From an uncultured virus (IMG/VR IMGVR_UViG_3300032397_003421) (taxonomy: Duplodnaviria > Heunggongvirae > Uroviricota > Caudoviricetes): 20,000 nt of DNA. The stretch is taken from the IMG/VR virus record IMGVR_UViG_3300032397_003421; one strand, written 5' to 3'. Below are positions 1-17,805 of this stretch, one piece after another. The translations under genes were made by a program, and so were the position numbers. Each line of letters opens with the position of its first letter. Position 1 is the stretch's first letter. Below the pieces are notes generated by a model. That model saw only the letters and a list, made by a program, of their open reading frames with translations, was not told the DNA's origin and did no database searches.

Positions 1-709
1 GATTAGGTATATCAAAATCTTTTTTACGTATAAGTTTCATAATACTTTGGAAGTTTTCAATTCCGTTTGTATCTATTATACAGATTTCACCATCAAGTAC
101 AACATTTTTAAGATTCATTGTTTGTATTTCTTTTCTCAATACTCCAAGAGTTTCAAATTCATTTCCCTGTCTACTATAGAATTTTATATCTCCATCTTTA
201 TTTATTATGGTGAGACACCTACATCCATCAAGTTTATGTGAAGAGTAATAACCATCTTTAACAAGATCAACTTTGTTTTTAACATCCTCCCAGCTATTCG
301 CCAAAGCAACTTCAAAGGTAGGAATAAGTCCAGGATATATATCATTTATAATTTTATCCCCTACCCTACATTCAAGGTCTTTATCAATTATCTTATAAAG
401 AATGTCTTCATATTCTGAGTGATCTTTTATAAATCTATTACAGTATGATATTGCATCATGCCCTGTAATAAGTCTTTTATTAAGAGCGTCTAACAACATA
501 AATACATCTCCATAAGTACCTTCAGATAGAAGAGTAATATTCTTTTTAAGATTTGCACTTGATACATAATACATCTTAAAGGGATTATATACAATTTCTA
601 ACATATCTTTCATCTCTGGAAATTTTTTCAGTACTTCTTTTTTATCAAGAGTACTATTTGTTGTATTCATTTCTTCTATGAATTGTTTTGTAATTTCTAA
701 TATATTCAT
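1..709 (-). CDS. lig: ATP-dependent DNA ligase (T4 gp30-like), N-terminal part; truncated by the window edge
   Basis: Not in the ORF track; translated by hand from ATG at 709 (AGGAG RBS about 10 nt upstream): MNILEITKQFIEEMNTTNSTLDKKEVLKK...KIIDKDLECRVG...IPTFEVALA...SSHKLDGCRC...FYSRQGNEF...VVLDGEIC...ENFQSIMKLIRKK. Contains motif I (KxDGxR), SRxG and motif III (LDGE). Open to position 1. Confidence 0.93.
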   Translation of the reverse strand, partial: MNILEITKQFIEEMNTTNSTLDKKEVLKKFPEMKDMLEIVYNPFKMYYVSSANLKKNITLLSEGTYGDVFMLLDALNKRLITGHDAISYCNRFIKDHSEYEDILYKIIDKDLECRVGDKIINDIYPGLIPTFEVALANSWEDVKNKVDLVKDGYYSSHKLDGCRCLTIINKDGDIKFYSRQGNEFETLGVLRKEIQTMNLKNVVLDGEICIIDTNGIENFQSIMKLIRKKDFDIPN

Positions 710-725
710 TTTTTTAATTCTCCTT

Positions 726-1913
726 TTAATTTAATTCTACTAAATATTTAATTGTACATTGTTCAGATTTATAAACTATGAATTCATTATTTATAAGATC
801 AATTCCCCCTTTTGCAAATAATGAATCATAGTCTCCTTTAGACTTAAGATTTTGATATGACATAGAATACATTTCTGAAGTATGTTTATCAACTCGATAC
901 TCCATTCCTGTATTAACTTCATATAACGCCATAAAAGCTTGTTTAGCATTCCCCTTTACCCAATAACTACCGCTTAATGAGGTATAACCCAATGCCTTCT
1001 TGCATTTATCCGCCATGTATATACCATCACCAAACATACTTCCTGTATGTACTGCTCCTGTAGGTCTTATAAGCAAACTTGATTTAAGTATATTAAGCCA
1101 ATTTTCATTTCTACTACCATGCCATAAAAGTTTAGTCCAGTGTTTTACAGATTCTTTTTTCTGAACTTCAAATTTATCTTTTGATACTTTATGAATTACT
1201 TCATATAATCCACTAAATTTATTTGATTCTGTTCCCATCATTTCTTTAACTTTATCAATTACTATTTGATCAGTTACTTTAAAAATCTTAACTCCTAATA
1301 TATCTTCTAAAGTTTTATCTGAATCAATAGATGCTGTATTAATACTTACTTGTCCTCTCATTACATCCACTGCATCCTGCTCTCTTTCAAGTATTGCTTT
1401 TCCTTTTATTTTATCACCTATTCCATTAAGAATAAAATCTTGAACTTTTTTCATTTTTCTTGGAATAATAGTATAAAGTTCAGTAAGTTTATCATCAATA
1501 TTTGAATTTGAAATTTTTTTATATTTCAACATATCAGCTATTTGATTTAGAATTTCTTGTGCTTTATCAATTTGTGCTTCAGTAACTTGATCCGCTGAAA
1601 CTGTATAGTTATCCAATATAGATGCTTTTGAATAACTTTGTAAATCTGAAAGAAGCTTCATTATAGTAGAATTAGTAACATCTTTAAGAACTGCTGTTTT
1701 AATTGTGGATTTAAGACTGGTAATATCTTTATATCCTTTTTTGATTTTACTTTTATATATCTTATCCCAATCTAACATTGGATAAGTCATTGTTTGTTCA
1801 GTTAATCCTACTCTACCATATTTCACTAAAAAAGTAGAATTATTTTCTATCATAGTATAATACTTATTATTATTATTTTCTGAGCTAACCATTATCAATT
1901 CTATTTGTTTCAT
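726..1913 (-). CDS. Poly(ADP-ribose) polymerase-like protein (WGR-like + helical regulatory + catalytic ART domain)
   Basis: N-terminal KYY...VKYGRVG...KIKKGY (WGR-like, YGR variant); helical-domain signature LYTIIP; catalytic signatures LLWHGS (H265), GSMFGDGIYMA (Y299), KALGY, NNEFIVY (E377), Q..IKYLV. AAGGAG RBS. Confidence 0.93.
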   Translation of the reverse strand: MKQIELIMVSSENNNNKYYTMIENNSTFLVKYGRVGLTEQTMTYPMLDWDKIYKSKIKKGYKDITSLKSTIKTAVLKDVTNSTIMKLLSDLQSYSKASILDNYTVSADQVTEAQIDKAQEILNQIADMLKYKKISNSNIDDKLTELYTIIPRKMKKVQDFILNGIGDKIKGKAILEREQDAVDVMRGQVSINTASIDSDKTLEDILGVKIFKVTDQIVIDKVKEMMGTESNKFSGLYEVIHKVSKDKFEVQKKESVKHWTKLLWHGSRNENWLNILKSSLLIRPTGAVHTGSMFGDGIYMADKCKKALGYTSLSGSYWVKGNAKQAFMALYEVNTGMEYRVDKHTSEMYSMSYQNLKSKGDYDSLFAKGGIDLINNEFIVYKSEQCTIKYLVELN

Positions 1914-1937
1914 TTTATTTCTCCTTAGCTTACTTTA

Positions 1938-2540
1938 TTAAATTGTTAATTCATATCCAACATTATTCATAAATTCAATATATTTACTTTGTATTTTTGT
2001 TCTCCAATATGAAAGATTGGCTGTATGTTTTTCTCCTAATTCTTTTGCTATATCTTGTTTTTTCATATTTGTTTGTAATAAATTTAATAAATTTAATTCA
2101 TAAGAGGTAAGTTGTTTTTTAAAAATTTCTAAATTAGTATTAAATATTAGTATGTCTTCAAAAGATTTTGTTTTATTTTGTACAATAATTTTTTCTCTAT
2201 CTACTTCATATATATATTTTTTATTTTTTGTACCTTCATACTTAAAATAAGGCTCGATGTATGATTTAAATATATAACCAAAAGAAAAAGAAGATTCATT
2301 ATTTATTTTATTTATATTTACAAATTCAAGAGCTTTGATCATTAAAAAATAACATTCTTGCATATTATCTTCCATACTTGAGAGATATCTATATGCATTA
2401 GAATACTTTTTACAAAGAGGTGCATATTTTTTATAAAAATAAGTTTCTATTTCTTGTTTCGTTCTCCAATGTGAATTATTCTTATAAATTTCTATTACTT
2501 CTAAATCTGTTTTGTTTGAATAATTATTTGTTTTTTTCAT
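1938..2540 (-). CDS. RNA polymerase sigma-70-like factor (region 2 + region 4 HTH)
   Basis: MEDNMQECYFLMIKAL...FSFGYIFKSYI resembles sigma region 2; LTSYELNLLNLL...KKQDIAKELG resembles the region 4 HTH. ATG at 2540 with AGGAG 8 nt upstream is preferred to the track start at 2549. Confidence 0.65.
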   Translation of the reverse strand: MKKTNNYSNKTDLEVIEIYKNNSHWRTKQEIETYFYKKYAPLCKKYSNAYRYLSSMEDNMQECYFLMIKALEFVNINKINNESSFSFGYIFKSYIEPYFKYEGTKNKKYIYEVDREKIIVQNKTKSFEDILIFNTNLEIFKKQLTSYELNLLNLLQTNMKKQDIAKELGEKHTANLSYWRTKIQSKYIEFMNNVGYELTI

Positions 2541-2665
2541 TGTATACACTCCTACATGTATTTAATTTTTCCTTATTTAATTTTTAAAAAGTTTTTTTAT
2601 AATTTGTTATTAAAAATTTTATTTTATTTTTTATTTTTTATTTTTAAGTTTTCTCCTTATTTAAT

Positions 2666-3124
2666 TTATGCTATTTCTATGAAATATGCTATCCCAGAAT
2701 CAAATAATTTCCCTTTTTCAAAAAATAATTTAAGTGCTCCTATTTTAACTTCTTGAATATAGTTATAATAACCTTCTTGTAATTTTATACATTTTTGCAA
2801 TAATGATTCTACTATCATTTTAACATCATTAGGATGAGTAGTATGAAGATCTTTAAAATTCTTTTTTATAGGAGGAAGTGTTATAATAACTGCGTGATTT
2901 TGAGTATCTTTTTTATTATGTATGTCTTTTCTCCAATCTATAATAGCACATATACCAGTAGATTTTGACCATATAGCATAAATAGTTGCTTCGTCATCAT
3001 ATTCAGTAATTATTTTATTTATTGCATTAGTAATCACTTTATTTACTATTTCTTTTGAAAATTGATCTTTATACCTTTTAACATATTGATCAATAGCATG
3101 ATGAGTATCTATTATTTTTCTCAT
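2666..3124 (-). CDS. Hypothetical protein; N-terminus resembles DUF4258/RelE-like fold proteins
   Basis: 152 aa, AAGGAG RBS; N-terminal IIDTHHAIDQYVKRY motif and a later VIITL strand. Confidence 0.45.
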   Translation of the reverse strand: MRKIIDTHHAIDQYVKRYKDQFSKEIVNKVITNAINKIITEYDDEATIYAIWSKSTGICAIIDWRKDIHNKKDTQNHAVIITLPPIKKNFKDLHTTHPNDVKMIVESLLQKCIKLQEGYYNYIQEVKIGALKLFFEKGKLFDSGIAYFIEIA

Positions 3125-3162
3125 TCTATTTTCTCCTTACTTACTTTATTAAATCTAATACT

Positions 3163-3215
3163 AATATAATACCTACGTTAGAAAAGTACAATACTTTTTT
3201 TACTTTTTTTTAAAA
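3163..3215 (-). promoter_or_regulatory. Sigma70-type (early) promoter for the leftward PARP/ligase cluster
   Basis: Minus strand TTGTAC (3191-3186), 17 bp spacer, TATATT (3168-3163), with A-tracts upstream (UP-element-like), about 40 bp before the ATG at 3124. Confidence 0.6.
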
Positions 3216-3284
3216 AATTCATTTTTTTAGTTATATAAGAAAATGTAGAATAGTTATAAAAATTAAAATATAAAGAAGGAAAAA

Positions 3285-5297
3285 ATGGTTAATATAAACA
3301 AAGAACAGTTAATAGATGATAAATATAACGATTTATCAATTGAAGAAAAACAAACTCTATATAAGATGTATTTTGATAAAGAAACTAGAGATGAACTTAA
3401 AAAACAAGTTGAAAGTATAATATATTATTCTACTCCTCCAACACCAGAAGAATTTCTTGATCCTACTAATGGTTGGTTATCTGGATCATTTGTACAAAGT
3501 ATATATCCATGGGTAAAAGCTGAATTTTTAGAATGTTTAGATAAAGAAAAAAAATATAATAAAATAGTACAATATGGATCAACAAGGATTGGTAAAACAT
3601 ATCTAGCAATATTACTTATTACTTATACAATAGTATTTATACATTTTCTTAGAGAACCCGCAATGTATTATGGATTATCACCTCTTACAGATCTTGCTAT
3701 ATACATTATATCCTTTAAATATGATAAAACTAGAGAATTGTATTTACGTCCTATGTTTAAAATGATGGAAAAATCAGATAGATTTATACAAGTAAAATTT
3801 CAAGATAAAGTAGCAACAGAACAAAGAAGGTTAGGTCGAGATAAAATTGTATATAGTAAAGCTTCAACTTCAGGAGAAATTACTTTAGCATCTGGATTAC
3901 AATTACAATTAGGTAATGATGATGCATTAGCTTTTATAGGGTCTAATATAATTTCTGCCTATATATCAGAAATTTCATTTTGGGTTGAAAATGCAGGAGC
4001 AACAGAAGAAAATATTTTTAGATTATATACAGATATTGCAGATAGAATTAAAGCTACTGTTGGTGAAGATTATTTAACATTTCTTTATCTTGATACTTCT
4101 GCAAATAATGTAGATTCAATAATAGAAAAACATATACTTACTGAATTAAGATATAGAGAAGGAGTAAGATTCAATTGGGTAACTAGATGGGAAGCTCTTC
4201 CTAATAATGGTAAAAATTTTAAAAAATGGCATAAAACTGGAGAAACATTTAAAGTAATTACTGGTAATGGATCTATTCCTGCAGCTATAGTTACAGATAA
4301 TAGACAATTAGAAGATATACCATTAGATTTAATTATCAATGTTCCAATAGATTCTTATGATGCATTTAAAGATAATCTTATAAAAAGTATTAAGGATATC
4401 GCTGGTAGGCCCACGGTGTCAGAGAATAAGTTTATTAATAATGTTGAACTAATTACAAACATGTTTAATAATTCTTTATTAAACAATATTGAAGGAGCTA
4501 TAATAGCAGATTCTAATTCAATGCCTGAAAAATTATTATGGAATCAAATTAATACAAATTTATTTTTTCATAGAACACCTTCTAATTCTTTTCAGATAAA
4601 TAGGGCAATTGGAGCTCCTAGATTTGTTGGATTAGATACAAGTTATTCTATAAATGGAGATGCTACAGGAATAACAATTCTTCATAAAGAGTACGATATA
4701 GAAAAAAAAGAATGTGTTTATGTAGTAGATTTAAGTTGTGCTATAATAGGAAAAGAAAAAGGAATAAATTTAGAAGCAGTTCCATATTTATTATTAGATT
4801 TAATTTCTGAAGCTGGATTGCCTATTTATGCTCTTTATATAGATACTTTTCAAAGTGAAACAGGTAAACAATTTTTGGAAAGAAACAATGTAAAAGTAAT
4901 AAAACAAAGTGTTGATAGAGATGTAGTTCCTTATCAAATACTACTTACGACTATGATTAATGGTTTAGTTAAATCAGGAAGAAATATATTTTTAAAGAAT
5001 AATTTACAATGTTTAATGGTTACCAAATCTCAAACAGGCAAAGACAAAATAGATCATCCAGAAGGGGTAATAAATAATAAATATAATAGTGATTGGAATA
5101 AGTCAATTTGTGGTACTTTTGCTAAAGATGTAAGTGATTCACTAGCTAATGCTTTATATGGTGCGTTTGTATCGAATATATCTCCTACAATTATATATCA
5201 AGAAGAAAATAAAAGATTTTCTAAAGATATAATTGATACTAAAGATATTATAAATAAAGCATTAATAAATCTTTTGAAAACTCGTCCACATCTATAA
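3285..5297 (+). CDS. terL: Terminase large subunit
   Basis: 670 aa; PPTPEEFL N-terminal motif, Walker A GSTRIGKT, variant Walker B ISAYISE, motif-III-like LDTSAN, RNase H-like nuclease RFVGLDTS...GDATG, IDTFQS, KIDHP, AKDVSDSLANA. Confidence 0.88.
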   Translation: MVNINKEQLIDDKYNDLSIEEKQTLYKMYFDKETRDELKKQVESIIYYSTPPTPEEFLDPTNGWLSGSFVQSIYPWVKAEFLECLDKEKKYNKIVQYGSTRIGKTYLAILLITYTIVFIHFLREPAMYYGLSPLTDLAIYIISFKYDKTRELYLRPMFKMMEKSDRFIQVKFQDKVATEQRRLGRDKIVYSKASTSGEITLASGLQLQLGNDDALAFIGSNIISAYISEISFWVENAGATEENIFRLYTDIADRIKATVGEDYLTFLYLDTSANNVDSIIEKHILTELRYREGVRFNWVTRWEALPNNGKNFKKWHKTGETFKVITGNGSIPAAIVTDNRQLEDIPLDLIINVPIDSYDAFKDNLIKSIKDIAGRPTVSENKFINNVELITNMFNNSLLNNIEGAIIADSNSMPEKLLWNQINTNLFFHRTPSNSFQINRAIGAPRFVGLDTSYSINGDATGITILHKEYDIEKKECVYVVDLSCAIIGKEKGINLEAVPYLLLDLISEAGLPIYALYIDTFQSETGKQFLERNNVKVIKQSVDRDVVPYQILLTTMINGLVKSGRNIFLKNNLQCLMVTKSQTGKDKIDHPEGVINNKYNSDWNKSICGTFAKDVSDSLANALYGAFVSNISPTIIYQEENKRFSKDIIDTKDIINKALINLLKTRPHL

Positions 5298-13508: not shown

Positions 13509-13796
13509 TTAAACCCTTTTATTCCATTTTTCTGATAATTCTATTTTTTCTTTATTTATATATAATTCATAAGAATCTTCTTCTCTTGATCTTAAAGCAT
13601 TATTTTCTCTAAAATCCTGAACTGTATATTTTGAAAATTCGTTAAAAAACTTTATATAATATTCTCCTGAAGTGGCTTTGCAGTTATCACATACTATAAT
13701 TAAATATTTATATTTACAATACTCACTTATAGTTTCATCTTTATCTAACAACTTAATTTTATCAGATCCACAAAATGGACATGGTTTTAAATTCAT
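13509..13796 (-). CDS. Lar-family restriction alleviation-like zinc-ribbon protein
   Basis: LKPCPFCG...IVCDNCKA...EKWNKR signature. Confidence 0.75.
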   Translation of the reverse strand: MNLKPCPFCGSDKIKLLDKDETISEYCKYKYLIIVCDNCKATSGEYYIKFFNEFSKYTVQDFRENNALRSREEDSYELYINKEKIELSEKWNKRV

Positions 13797-16530: not shown

Positions 16531-17805
16531 TTAGGCTGTTCTTTTAATACTTAATTTATTAAATATATCTATTTTATTTATAATATTAAAATCTAATATA
16601 GTTTCTAATTGAGTATATACATTTTCCCAAAGGTATTTTTGTCCTTCTTCTTGATTTCTTTTTTTAATAATATCTAATTCAGTTAAATTTAATTGAATTA
16701 CTTCTAACATTTTTTCAACTGTTTCATTTATATTGGGTATTTTCCAATCACAGAAATAATTATTTGGTCTTATAGTAGCAACACTTGATATAGGAAAACC
16801 AAAATCTTGTATATATTGTGATATACCACCTACATTATGATATATAATAGGAAGACCATTTATCATTGCTTCCATAAATCCATATCCAAACCCTTCTGCA
16901 AGAGGCAATCCTATATAGCAATTACAACATCGATATCTTTTATATAATTCTCTTTTTGATATTTGTTCAGGCTTAGATAGTATAATATTATCTGATATTT
17001 TCAATTCATAAATCATAGATTTTATATCAGTTCCTGCATCTACTGTATCTACCATTCCATGAAGATACAATTTATATTTTTCTTTATTATCTACTTTTTG
17101 TAAAAATTTATAAAAAGCTTCTATGACAAAATCTAATCCTTTTCTATTGAAATTATGTCCAACTGTAATAAAAACAAAATCATCCTCTTTAATTGCTCCA
17201 CGAAAAACTAATTGTTTAGTTAATTCTTCTTCTTCAAAATAAAAATTATCTAACCCATTTGGTAAAGATTCTAAAGTATTAGCTCCAAATTTATTTAATT
17301 GTATTTTACCAACTTCATTATAAGCAATAGAATAATCTATATTTTTACATATATCACTTAAAGATTTTCTTATATTTGGATCTATTTGTGTTGGATTAAT
17401 TACATATCCAGAATAGAAATCACTTTCTATTGGACAATATGCTATCCATGTAAATGTATCTCTATATGCAGATAATATGATATTTTCAAATTGCCATAAA
17501 TCATGAATTGTTAAAACTATATTAGGTTTAAATTCTTTTATACAATCATTTAAGATAGTTAAAGAATCTTGTTTTTTATTTTGACAATTATAAATTTTTG
17601 AATCAAATAAATTTTCATAAAAGAAATGCCCTTTATTAGGAAGATCATTTATCGTACAATCTTCTCCACTCAAAATGCAATAATTTACTAAATATTCTTT
17701 TTGAATAAAAAAATTACATAAATTCAAAGCTACATATGATAAACCAGTTATATTCTTAAATGAATCACTACATATTAATATTCGAGGACTATTTTTAGAT
17801 TTCAA
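16531..17805 (-). CDS. GT-B fold glycosyltransferase (GT4-like)
   Basis: TGLSYVA, PNIVLTIHDLW, LPNGLD, FITVGHNFNRKG, AEGFGYGFMEAMINGLPII (E-x7-E motif). TTG start with AGGAG RBS. Confidence 0.9.
   Translation of the reverse strand: MKSKNSPRILICSDSFKNITGLSYVALNLCNFFIQKEYLVNYCILSGEDCTINDLPNKGHFFYENLFDSKIYNCQNKKQDSLTILNDCIKEFKPNIVLTIHDLWQFENIILSAYRDTFTWIAYCPIESDFYSGYVINPTQIDPNIRKSLSDICKNIDYSIAYNEVGKIQLNKFGANTLESLPNGLDNFYFEEEELTKQLVFRGAIKEDDFVFITVGHNFNRKGLDFVIEAFYKFLQKVDNKEKYKLYLHGMVDTVDAGTDIKSMIYELKISDNIILSKPEQISKRELYKRYRCCNCYIGLPLAEGFGYGFMEAMINGLPIIYHNVGGISQYIQDFGFPISSVATIRPNNYFCDWKIPNINETVEKMLEVIQLNLTELDIIKKRNQEEGQKYLWENVYTQLETILDFNIINKIDIFNKLSIKRTA

Follow-up and report, generated by a model that had tools for sequence, protein, structure and literature searches.

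Our analysis of a 20,000-nucleotide stretch of DNA from an uncultured virus of the class Caudoviricetes (IMG/VR record IMGVR_UViG_3300032397_003421), the whole of which we call the window, centers on a gene for a poly(ADP-ribose) polymerase (PARP) that lies directly upstream of an ATP-dependent DNA ligase gene on the same strand. The PARP gene is a real, intact and ordinary member of a known family of phage and bacterial PARPs. What is new is a comparative result, namely that linkage between PARP and DNA ligase is recurrent across clades of phages, yet is a minority pattern and not universal, in what appears from the sequences to be a conserved and under-described break-repair neighbourhood. 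The reading that we favor, and to which we give a probability of about one half, is that the protein would be a break-activated ADP-ribosyltransferase of the PARP1/PARP2 type, expressed with the phage's own ligase as part of a module for handling DNA breaks.

Architecture and active site of the phage PARP

The 395-amino-acid protein carries a WGR domain, a helical domain and an ADP-ribosyltransferase catalytic domain in that order (Table 1), an architecture that a preliminary description of this DNA had read from the letters and that the Pfam, phmmer, AlphaFold and Foldseek results all bear out. Pfam recognizes the catalytic domain (PARP, 3.8e-22, residues 231-394) and the WGR domain (23.9 bits against a cut-off of 22, residues 8-64), and PHROG 23333 (phrog_23333, named 'polymerase') matches over the full length (1.5e-64), the alignment pairing residues 5-394 with positions 7-382 of a 383-position profile. 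When compared by phmmer with the Protein Data Bank (PDB), residues 76-314 and 372-394 align to the helical and catalytic domains of PARP1 (5e-18), such that LLWHGSR, GIYMAD and NNEFIVY of the phage protein pair with LLWHGSR, GIYFAD and YNEYIVY of PARP1. This alignment identifies H265, Y299 and E377 as the H-Y-E triad (H862, Y896 and E988 in PARP1), and it likewise confirms the by-eye assignment of M293, K306 and Y310 to PARP1 M890, K903 and Y907; none of the six varies among the 36 members of the family alignment, which we call A1 and on which both our AlphaFold model and our family profile are based.

The model (mean predicted local distance difference test score, pLDDT, 88.5; predicted template modeling score, pTM, 0.83) has an N-terminal domain rich in beta structure, then helices at residues 82-232, and an alpha/beta C-terminal domain. 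The best Foldseek matches in the PDB are chains of break-bound PARP1 and PARP2 comprising the WGR, helical and catalytic domains (8g0h_D, 2.2e-20; 4dqy_C, TMq 0.69; 6x0l_P, 9e-20), the alignments cover the whole query, and the similarity is far beyond chance. Of the profile and structure checks that the preliminary description had proposed, PARP gives a clear Pfam match, WGR scores over its cut-off and PARP_reg just under its own, and the predicted fold matches PARP1 and PARP2. An autoinhibitory helical domain is nevertheless recognizable, as phmmer places residues 76-232 onto that of PARP1 and the helical part of the model is of high confidence. No Pfam match to the R-S-E class of ADP-ribosyltransferases was obtained at E values up to 0.1, and the active site has the H-Y-E and not the R-S-E motif. 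The T4 enzymes Alt, ModA and ModB, which are also phage-encoded NAD+-dependent ADP-ribosyltransferases, belong to that R-S-E (cholera-toxin) class and are described as being without a WGR or helical domain (PMC8120803), so that the distinction drawn earlier between them and the H-Y-E window protein holds.

The family profile scores highest against PARP2 (7aeo_A, 7.6e-29), where NNNK(F/Y)Y...(Y/W)GRVG falls on PARP2 NNNKYY...WGRVG and N16, Y32 and R34 correspond to PARP2 N116, W138 and R140. Mutation of any one of these three PARP2 residues abolishes DNA-dependent activity (Langelier et al. 2014, PMC4081085). In A1 the Asn and Arg are invariant and position 32 is always aromatic (Tyr in 19, Trp in 14 and Phe in 3 of the 36), and therefore the activation residues of the WGR domain are kept in the window protein, with Tyr and not Trp at position 32. 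García-Saura et al. (2018, PMC5966428) find the same position mostly Tyr in bacterial PARPs, two of which, CdPARP (Clostridioides difficile CD160) and HaPARP (Herpetosiphon aurantiacus), undergo auto-PARylation when given NAD+ and activated DNA. Considering that the WGR activation residues are kept and that CdPARP and HaPARP are DNA-dependent, we infer on good grounds that the activity of the phage PARP is DNA-dependent as well, its product then probably being poly-ADP-ribose.

Relatives of the phage PARP and likeness to known systems

Homologues are plentiful. Among 6902 candidates of similar length, 2569 proteins match at E<=1e-3, mostly unnamed metagenomic sequences of ~395-410 amino acids, and an exhaustive search of representatives gives 3081 clusters at E<=1e-3, of which 493 remain at E<=1e-30. 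Our phage collection holds 14 matching records, 13 of which match over at least 80% of the query, with identities of 34% for Cellulophaga phages phi4:1 and phi17:2 (annotated as PARP), 40% for an uncultured 462-kb phage and 23-26% for Klebsiella, Xanthomonas and Stenotrophomonas phages; no record of that collection is more than 40% identical to the window protein. A scan of IMG/VR with A1 found 201 contigs with a PARP relative, and 159 species-representative bacterial genomes have one, mostly in Bacteroidota (Saprospiraceae, Cytophagales) with some Clostridia, the best 80 at 37-46% identity. Of these, the best 80 of the 201 contigs and the best 80 of the 159 bacterial genomes were kept. One metagenomic relative (P0128, 762 amino acids) has ~365 extra residues ahead of its WGR, helical and catalytic domains; we considered it as a PARP-ligase fusion and rejected this, since the N-terminus gives weak, sub-cut-off TPR-like matches and is followed by WGR and PARP.

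The preliminary description overstated how novel such a gene is. It is neither rare nor of a new kind, and phage PARPs of the same architecture are already catalogued in GenBank, in a PHROG and in print: Perina et al. (2014, PMC4245714) list PARPs in four double-stranded DNA viruses, phi4:1 among them, Iyer et al. (2021, PMC7824862; 2022, PMC9503650) note phage PARPs and suggest modification of host proteins, and a survey of jumbo phages from 2024 (PMC11662467) raises the speculative idea that phages use PARP and NAD-dependent ligase to repair their DNA. In the portions of the literature that our searches brought up, we found no description of a conserved phage neighbourhood of PARP, ligase and macrodomain.

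With the core of PARP1 and PARP2 the window protein shares domain order, the H-Y-E triad, the Met, Lys and Tyr of the acceptor site and the NNNKYY and (W/Y)GRVG motifs. It differs from them in its ~20% identity, in lacking the N-terminal tail, zinc fingers and BRCT domain, in having Tyr for the WGR Trp, in a poorly modeled loop at residues 286-290, and in being phage-encoded with no chromatin context. CdPARP and HaPARP, as they are described, have the same minimal layout of WGR, PARP_reg and catalytic domain and commonly Tyr at the first WGR position; their bacteria pair PARP with PARG, whereas we found no PARG in the (mostly partial) records of the window clade. Two phage proteins, phi4:1 gp031 and Xanthomonas phage XacN1 ORF414, belong to the same family, being 34% and 23% identical to the window protein across 99% of the length, and in phi4:1, a culturable relative, the DNA ligase (gp029) lies one gene downstream with gp030 between, whereas in the window it is directly adjacent.

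A pairing of an NAD+-using break sensor with a sealing ligase is familiar from single-strand-break repair by PARP1, XRCC1 and DNA ligase III; here we know of no XRCC1-like scaffold, and the coupling is proposed from gene order. Bacterial fusions of WGR with ATP-dependent DNA ligases also exist (Williamson and Leiros 2020, PMC7470946). These independently tie the same sensor module to a ligase, without an ADP-ribosyltransferase domain, while the tie in the window is adjacency and not fusion.

The PARP-ligase pairing recurs in separate phage clades

Open reading frames (ORFs) of at least 60 amino acids were called in 84 sources (the window and loci L001, L005, L006, L009 and L011-L089), and the resulting 1880 were clustered by BLASTP. 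Excluded were L002-L004, which are distant and were read from their annotation, L007 and L008, which are the same as the L011 and L012 contigs, and L010, which is not a PARP locus; L064, L065 and L067 were then dropped because they have no ORF in the PARP cluster, and the remaining 81 fall into 50 groups at 90% PARP identity. Cluster representatives were named by Pfam, and counts of the macrodomain and partner families come from profile searches. The contigs are for the most part incomplete, ORFs were called in a crude way, and the neighbour families are BLAST clusters plus a few profiles.

Within ~8 kb of PARP, the 50 groups have a TARG1-like macrodomain (16), a small partner protein of a family that we call A3 (15), RNA ligases (14), C5 DNA methylase (13), ATP-dependent DNA ligase (12), ERCC4 nuclease (9), NAD-dependent DNA ligase, PD-(D/E)XK nuclease and primase-like proteins (7 each), RlaP and VWA (6 each), and Thg1, CCA-adding/HD and PNKP (4 each). 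Of the 50 groups, 19 have a DNA ligase of one type or the other and 29 a polynucleotide ligase of any kind. In L005 (LR756500.1, the uncultured 462-kb phage), the genes that follow PARP encode an R2K ATP-grasp protein, an AAA ATPase, an RNA ligase and a protein with HD and P-loop kinase parts. In 13 groups the DNA ligase is separated from PARP by 0-3 ORFs (none in three groups, i.e. the window, L066 and L087, one in eight and three in two). As a control for genome size we located the adenylation domains of DNA ligases (PF01068, PF01653) in whole records of the 49 groups other than the window, of which 36 have a ligase. The nearest one lies within 3 kb of PARP in 10 of these 36 records, where uniform placement predicts 2.67 (simulated P 6.5e-5); for a distance of 5 kb the count is 13 with 4.42 predicted, and for 10 kb it is 19 with 7.70 predicted. 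RNA ligases (PF09414) are enriched within 10 kb, in 15 of 27 records with 5.68 predicted, but closer in, at 3 kb, they occur in 2 of 27 with 1.96 predicted and so show no enrichment, from which we take the tight pairing to be specific to DNA ligase and PARP to sit in a broader region of nucleic-acid repair genes.

A maximum-likelihood tree of the 50 PARPs places the pairing in separate, well-supported positions in at least four clades: the window clade (window, L011, L087 and L013; support 100/99), phi4:1 on a long branch, L009, and a macrodomain clade of 17-19 members. In the window clade the ligase follows PARP and is ATP-dependent in the window and L011 and NAD-dependent in L087. In the macrodomain clade the order is ligase, macrodomain, PARP, and here again the ligase is NAD-dependent in some loci (L063, L068, L082) and ATP-dependent in others (L050, L060, L088). 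The PARP-adjacent ATP-dependent ligases of different clades are just 18-29% identical, which argues that the pairing is not one cassette that has been copied around. That the slot is kept while the class of ligase is swapped is the strongest argument for selection on the pairing itself.

The check that the preliminary description proposed, of whether adjacency of PARP and ligase recurs in related phages, is thus positive in the 13 groups and the 10 records just given, and the linkage is missing from many relatives, including the Klebsiella and Xanthomonas phages and 79 of 80 bacterial loci. Its further proposal of a nick-activated PARP coupled to the ligase gains from the recurrent linkage as regards coupling, and as regards activation by breaks it stands by homology, that is on the WGR residues and on CdPARP and HaPARP. 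Its more specific ideas, that the enzyme may cap breaks, counter restriction or CRISPR, or drain NAD+, are conjecture.

A macrodomain and a small partner protein accompany PARP in other clades

The macrodomain family, of ~146 amino acids and here called A2, has a Pfam Macro match in 16 of 17 members, and its profile matches human TARG1/OARD1 at 3.5e-35 and DarG macrodomains at 7.8e-13. In the 16 groups that have it the gene lies directly upstream of PARP, often in the order ligase, macrodomain, PARP. Examples are at L063:7533-7973 (+) and in L050, L060, L068, L082, L088 and others. Human TARG1 is among the hydrolases reported to remove PARP3-made ADP-ribose from phosphates at DNA ends (Munnur and Ahel 2017, PMC5725667).

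The A3 partner, which is usually encoded directly after PARP, has no Pfam family; its best PDB match is the N-terminal domain of ArgR (E 0.05), and it has a winged-helix-like N-terminus and a conserved TTTLEVKN.LR motif. The gp030 protein of phi4:1 belongs to A3 (hhalign 93.8%). Examples are at L028:7410-7949, L001:6169-6633 (which is gp030) and L168:9203-9511. In bacteria A3 is the main companion, present in 48 of 80 loci and typically directly downstream of PARP, with the macrodomain in 10 of 80. Among the 50 phage groups the macrodomain and the A3 partner never co-occur. When the A2 and A3 profiles were compared with the 152- and 203-amino-acid neighbours in the window, hhalign probabilities were 0.1-0.9%, and neither family adjoins the window PARP. 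No macrodomain was found in the partial virus records G001 or G002, and the only eraser-type candidate in records of the window clade, all of them partial apart from G004, is a NADAR gene in G004, 25 kb from its PARP.

A proposed break-handling model and its alternatives

If the phage PARP works as its relatives do, its WGR domain would bind a nick or end in phage DNA, arising from replication or recombination intermediates, from packaging or from cuts by host nucleases, and N16 and R34 would pass the signal to the helical domain so as to release the H-Y-E active site. At the cost of NAD+, modification would then fall on PARP itself, on proteins close by and perhaps on the DNA end, and the ligase too may be among the modified molecules. 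The modification would mark or hold the break until the adjacent ligase seals it, and in the sister clade the TARG1-like macrodomain would remove the mark. Break dependence is predicted here by homology to CdPARP, HaPARP and PARP1-3, and we infer the targets and the functional coupling to ligation, the latter from gene order. Outside eukaryotes a few bacterial PARPs have been found active, and the recurrent ligase pairing suggests a testable job for the phage enzymes. Together with a TARG1-type eraser in one clade it yields a concrete hypothesis, in which break-stimulated ADP-ribosylation would be coupled to sealing, and it bears on the idea that the break-sensing PARPs of eukaryotes descend from bacterial or phage versions.

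Several observations weigh against this reading. At the level of the protein, the Pfam PARP_reg match (residues 83-164) scores 24.3 bits, under its gathering cut-off of 26.8. At the level of the neighbourhood, 31 of the 50 groups have no DNA ligase within ~8 kb, in 17 of the 36 ligase-bearing records the ligase is more than 10 kb from PARP and up to 328 kb away, the distant relatives Klebsiella 05F01, XacN1 and Xoo-sp13 have none within 5 kb, and the ATP-ligase profile matched just one of the 80 bacterial loci, 48 of which have the small, unrelated partner instead. Since the 50 groups are related to one another, the simulated P values are optimistic and overstate independence; and since PARP of the macrodomain clade sits in a wider conserved block of replication and recombination genes (primase-like, PD-(D/E)XK, C5 methylase, ERCC4), part of the proximity there is synteny of a whole module. 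No Macro, PARG or ARH match was found in records of the window clade, which are 33-95% complete and partial apart from G004. Finally, the PARP of L087 is interrupted by a single shift of reading frame at an A7 run (L087:8760-8775), which is likely an assembly error, as the shifted frame encodes an intact catalytic domain and decay is the less likely cause.

It is rather unlikely, though a serious alternative, that the enzyme is instead a modifier of host or phage proteins such as RNA polymerase, nucleoid or defence proteins, adding single units or polymers in a break-independent or host-directed manner, with the ligase close by through incidental clustering of early or DNA-metabolism genes. 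Iyer et al. (2021, PMC7824862) propose that phage PARPs act like other phage ADP-ribosyltransferases but add polymers; most loci indeed have no adjacent ligase, distant relatives lie among unrelated genes, and the gene directly upstream of the window PARP is sigma-factor-like. A WGR and an autoinhibitory helical domain with three activation residues kept are however hard to explain in a constitutive enzyme, and such a role leaves unexplained both the two ligase types in one slot and the TARG1-like eraser between ligase and PARP. The two readings also overlap, in that protein modification may itself be break-activated. Sensing of broken RNA, for example cleaved tRNA, by the WGR domain is a good deal less probable; here PARP would counter the anticodon nucleases of the host together with RNA ligase, PNKP, RlaP, Thg1 and CCA-adding enzymes. 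RNA-repair-type genes do lie within ~8 kb of PARP in 21 of the 50 groups, a CCA-adding enzyme is directly upstream of PARP in phi4:1, RNA ligases are enriched within 10 kb, and the window itself has one; but this enrichment is absent within 3 kb, the window RNA ligase is 12 kb off with many genes between, and the closest characterized homologues are activated by DNA.

We consider it very improbable that PARP serves mainly to manage NAD+, blunting NAD+-dependent host systems or acting as a superinfection or abortive switch. The enzyme class does consume NAD+, and some relatives lie near NAD+-linked genes (an NMNAT-like, i.e. cytidylyltransferase-like, gene 4 kb upstream in L005, and NAD-dependent ligases), but loss of NAD+ generally harms phages, regulation by WGR and helical domains together with the conserved M293, K306 and Y310 points to regulated transfer over hydrolysis, and in the neighbourhoods we saw nothing that ties PARP to known genes of defence or anti-defence. 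A bolder version of the break-handling model, which we regard as a long shot, makes PARP, the TARG1-like macrodomain and the ligase the parts of one cycle, in which a mark is written on DNA itself and erased, and the break sealed. The terminal phosphates of phage nicks or ends would here be ADP-ribosylated as they are by human PARP3 in vitro. Such a cap would shield ends from host exonucleases or pre-activate them, and sealing by the ligase would follow once the macrodomain has taken the cap off; in clades in which we found no eraser, such as the window clade, the ligase would work on the end directly. Some precedent comes from Belousova et al. (2018, PMC5843604), who report that several ligases, T4 ligase among them, can join gapped DNA modified by PARP3 and need no ATP to do so. 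If true, phage PARPs would be the first ADP-ribosyltransferases of DNA ends from any virus, and forerunners, in viruses of prokaryotes, of the PARP-coupled repair of breaks in eukaryotes.

The PARP locus and the rest of the window

Table 1. Positions of the features described in the window
Feature	Position	Strand	Basis or remark
ATP-dependent DNA ligase (T4 gp30 type), N-terminal 236 amino acids, cut by window edge	2..709	(-)	Pfam, PHROG
PARP-ligase spacer, 16 nucleotides	710..725	(-)	ligase Shine-Dalgarno AAGGAG at 725-720; no terminator
PARP gene, 395 amino acids, WGR - helical - ADP-ribosyltransferase, H265/Y299/E377	726..1913	(-)	ORF call, Pfam, PHROG, phmmer, model, Foldseek, profile
ADP-ribosyltransferase catalytic domain, ~residues 233-394	732..1217	(-)	Pfam PARP 3.8e-22, phmmer, Foldseek
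Helical (PARP_reg / HD-like) domain, ~residues 76-232	1218..1688	(-)	Pfam sub-cut-off, phmmer to PARP1 helical domain, model helices
WGR domain, residues 8-64; motifs NNNKYY (14-19), YGRVG (32-36)	1722..1892	(-)	Pfam WGR, profile alignment to PARP2
Spacer upstream of PARP, 24 nucleotides	1914..1937	(-)	Shine-Dalgarno AAGGAG at 1926-1921
Sigma-70-like protein (lead), 203 amino acids, directly upstream of PARP	1938..2549	(-)	Atlas 0.96-0.97
152-amino-acid protein	2666..3124	(-)	homologue in L011 at 48% identity
Large terminase, 670 amino acids, divergent gene	3285..5297	(+)	~25% identity to annotated TerL
GIY-YIG (LEM-3-like) protein, 339 amino acids	8078..9097	(+)	homing-endonuclease PHROG matches; end of plus-strand block
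Lar-like restriction-alleviation protein	13509..13796	(-)	same leftward gene array as glycosyltransferase
RNA ligase, 456 amino acids	14330..15700	(-)	phrog_968 7.8e-52; Pfam RNA_ligase 26.8 bits vs cut-off 27
GT4 glycosyltransferase	16531..17805	(-)	weak match to 'GT4-conflict' family; leftward gene array

As the preliminary description had stated, PARP ends 16 bp before the ligase on the same strand. The spacers on both sides of PARP are short with AAGGAG sites, and no terminator-like site was found in window positions 1-3400, which makes co-transcription of PARP and ligase likely; a promoter scan was at background (26 found, 28.4 in shuffles). The ligase fragment matches Pfam DNA_ligase_A_M (1.4e-10) and phrog_114 (ATP-dependent DNA ligase, 2.2e-48), and its KxDG motif is HKLDG, with K159 and G162 invariant in the ligase alignment A4. 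Its full form of 430 amino acids is seen in locus L006 (98-99% identical; ligase protein 99.6%), and it is there that the OB domain becomes visible, since the window copy is cut by the edge. In L006 a TnpB-like gene (OrfB_IS605 plus a Cas12f-like TNB domain; L006:6204-7376 (-)) lies ~2.4 kb beyond the ligase, on a contig 98% identical to the window.

The 203-amino-acid neighbour has no Pfam or PHROG match. Atlas places it among Sigma70_r2/r4 clusters of Bacillota and phages, and it is probably a phage sigma factor, which we offer as a lead; for the 152-amino-acid protein the best Atlas value is 0.86, giving no usable lead. In L011, a relative at 80% identity, the 152-amino-acid homologue lies between PARP and ligase and the 203-amino-acid homologue just after the ligase, so that the four genes stay clustered while their order is shuffled. 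A DUF2786/DUF7168 protein is also inserted between PARP and ligase in that locus (L011:9496-10161).

The window is AT-rich (GC 21-30%), has no tRNA genes, and gave no match as a whole in a megablast search of the phage collection. G001, the nearest of the virus records (52 kb, 33% complete), stops near window position 2099 and is without PARP; together with G002 (77 kb at 50% completeness) it suggests a phage genome of ~150 kb. A weak Pfam DNA_ligase_A_M match (E 0.083) of the 3285-5297 product was rejected as spurious, this protein being the large terminase. The RNA ligase is on the same strand as PARP, 12 kb upstream of it. The closest relatives of the window DNA ligase are ligases of large Bacillus phages (32%), which, with the resemblance of the sigma-like neighbour to sigma factors of Bacillota and phages, gives a weak lead to a host among the Bacillota.

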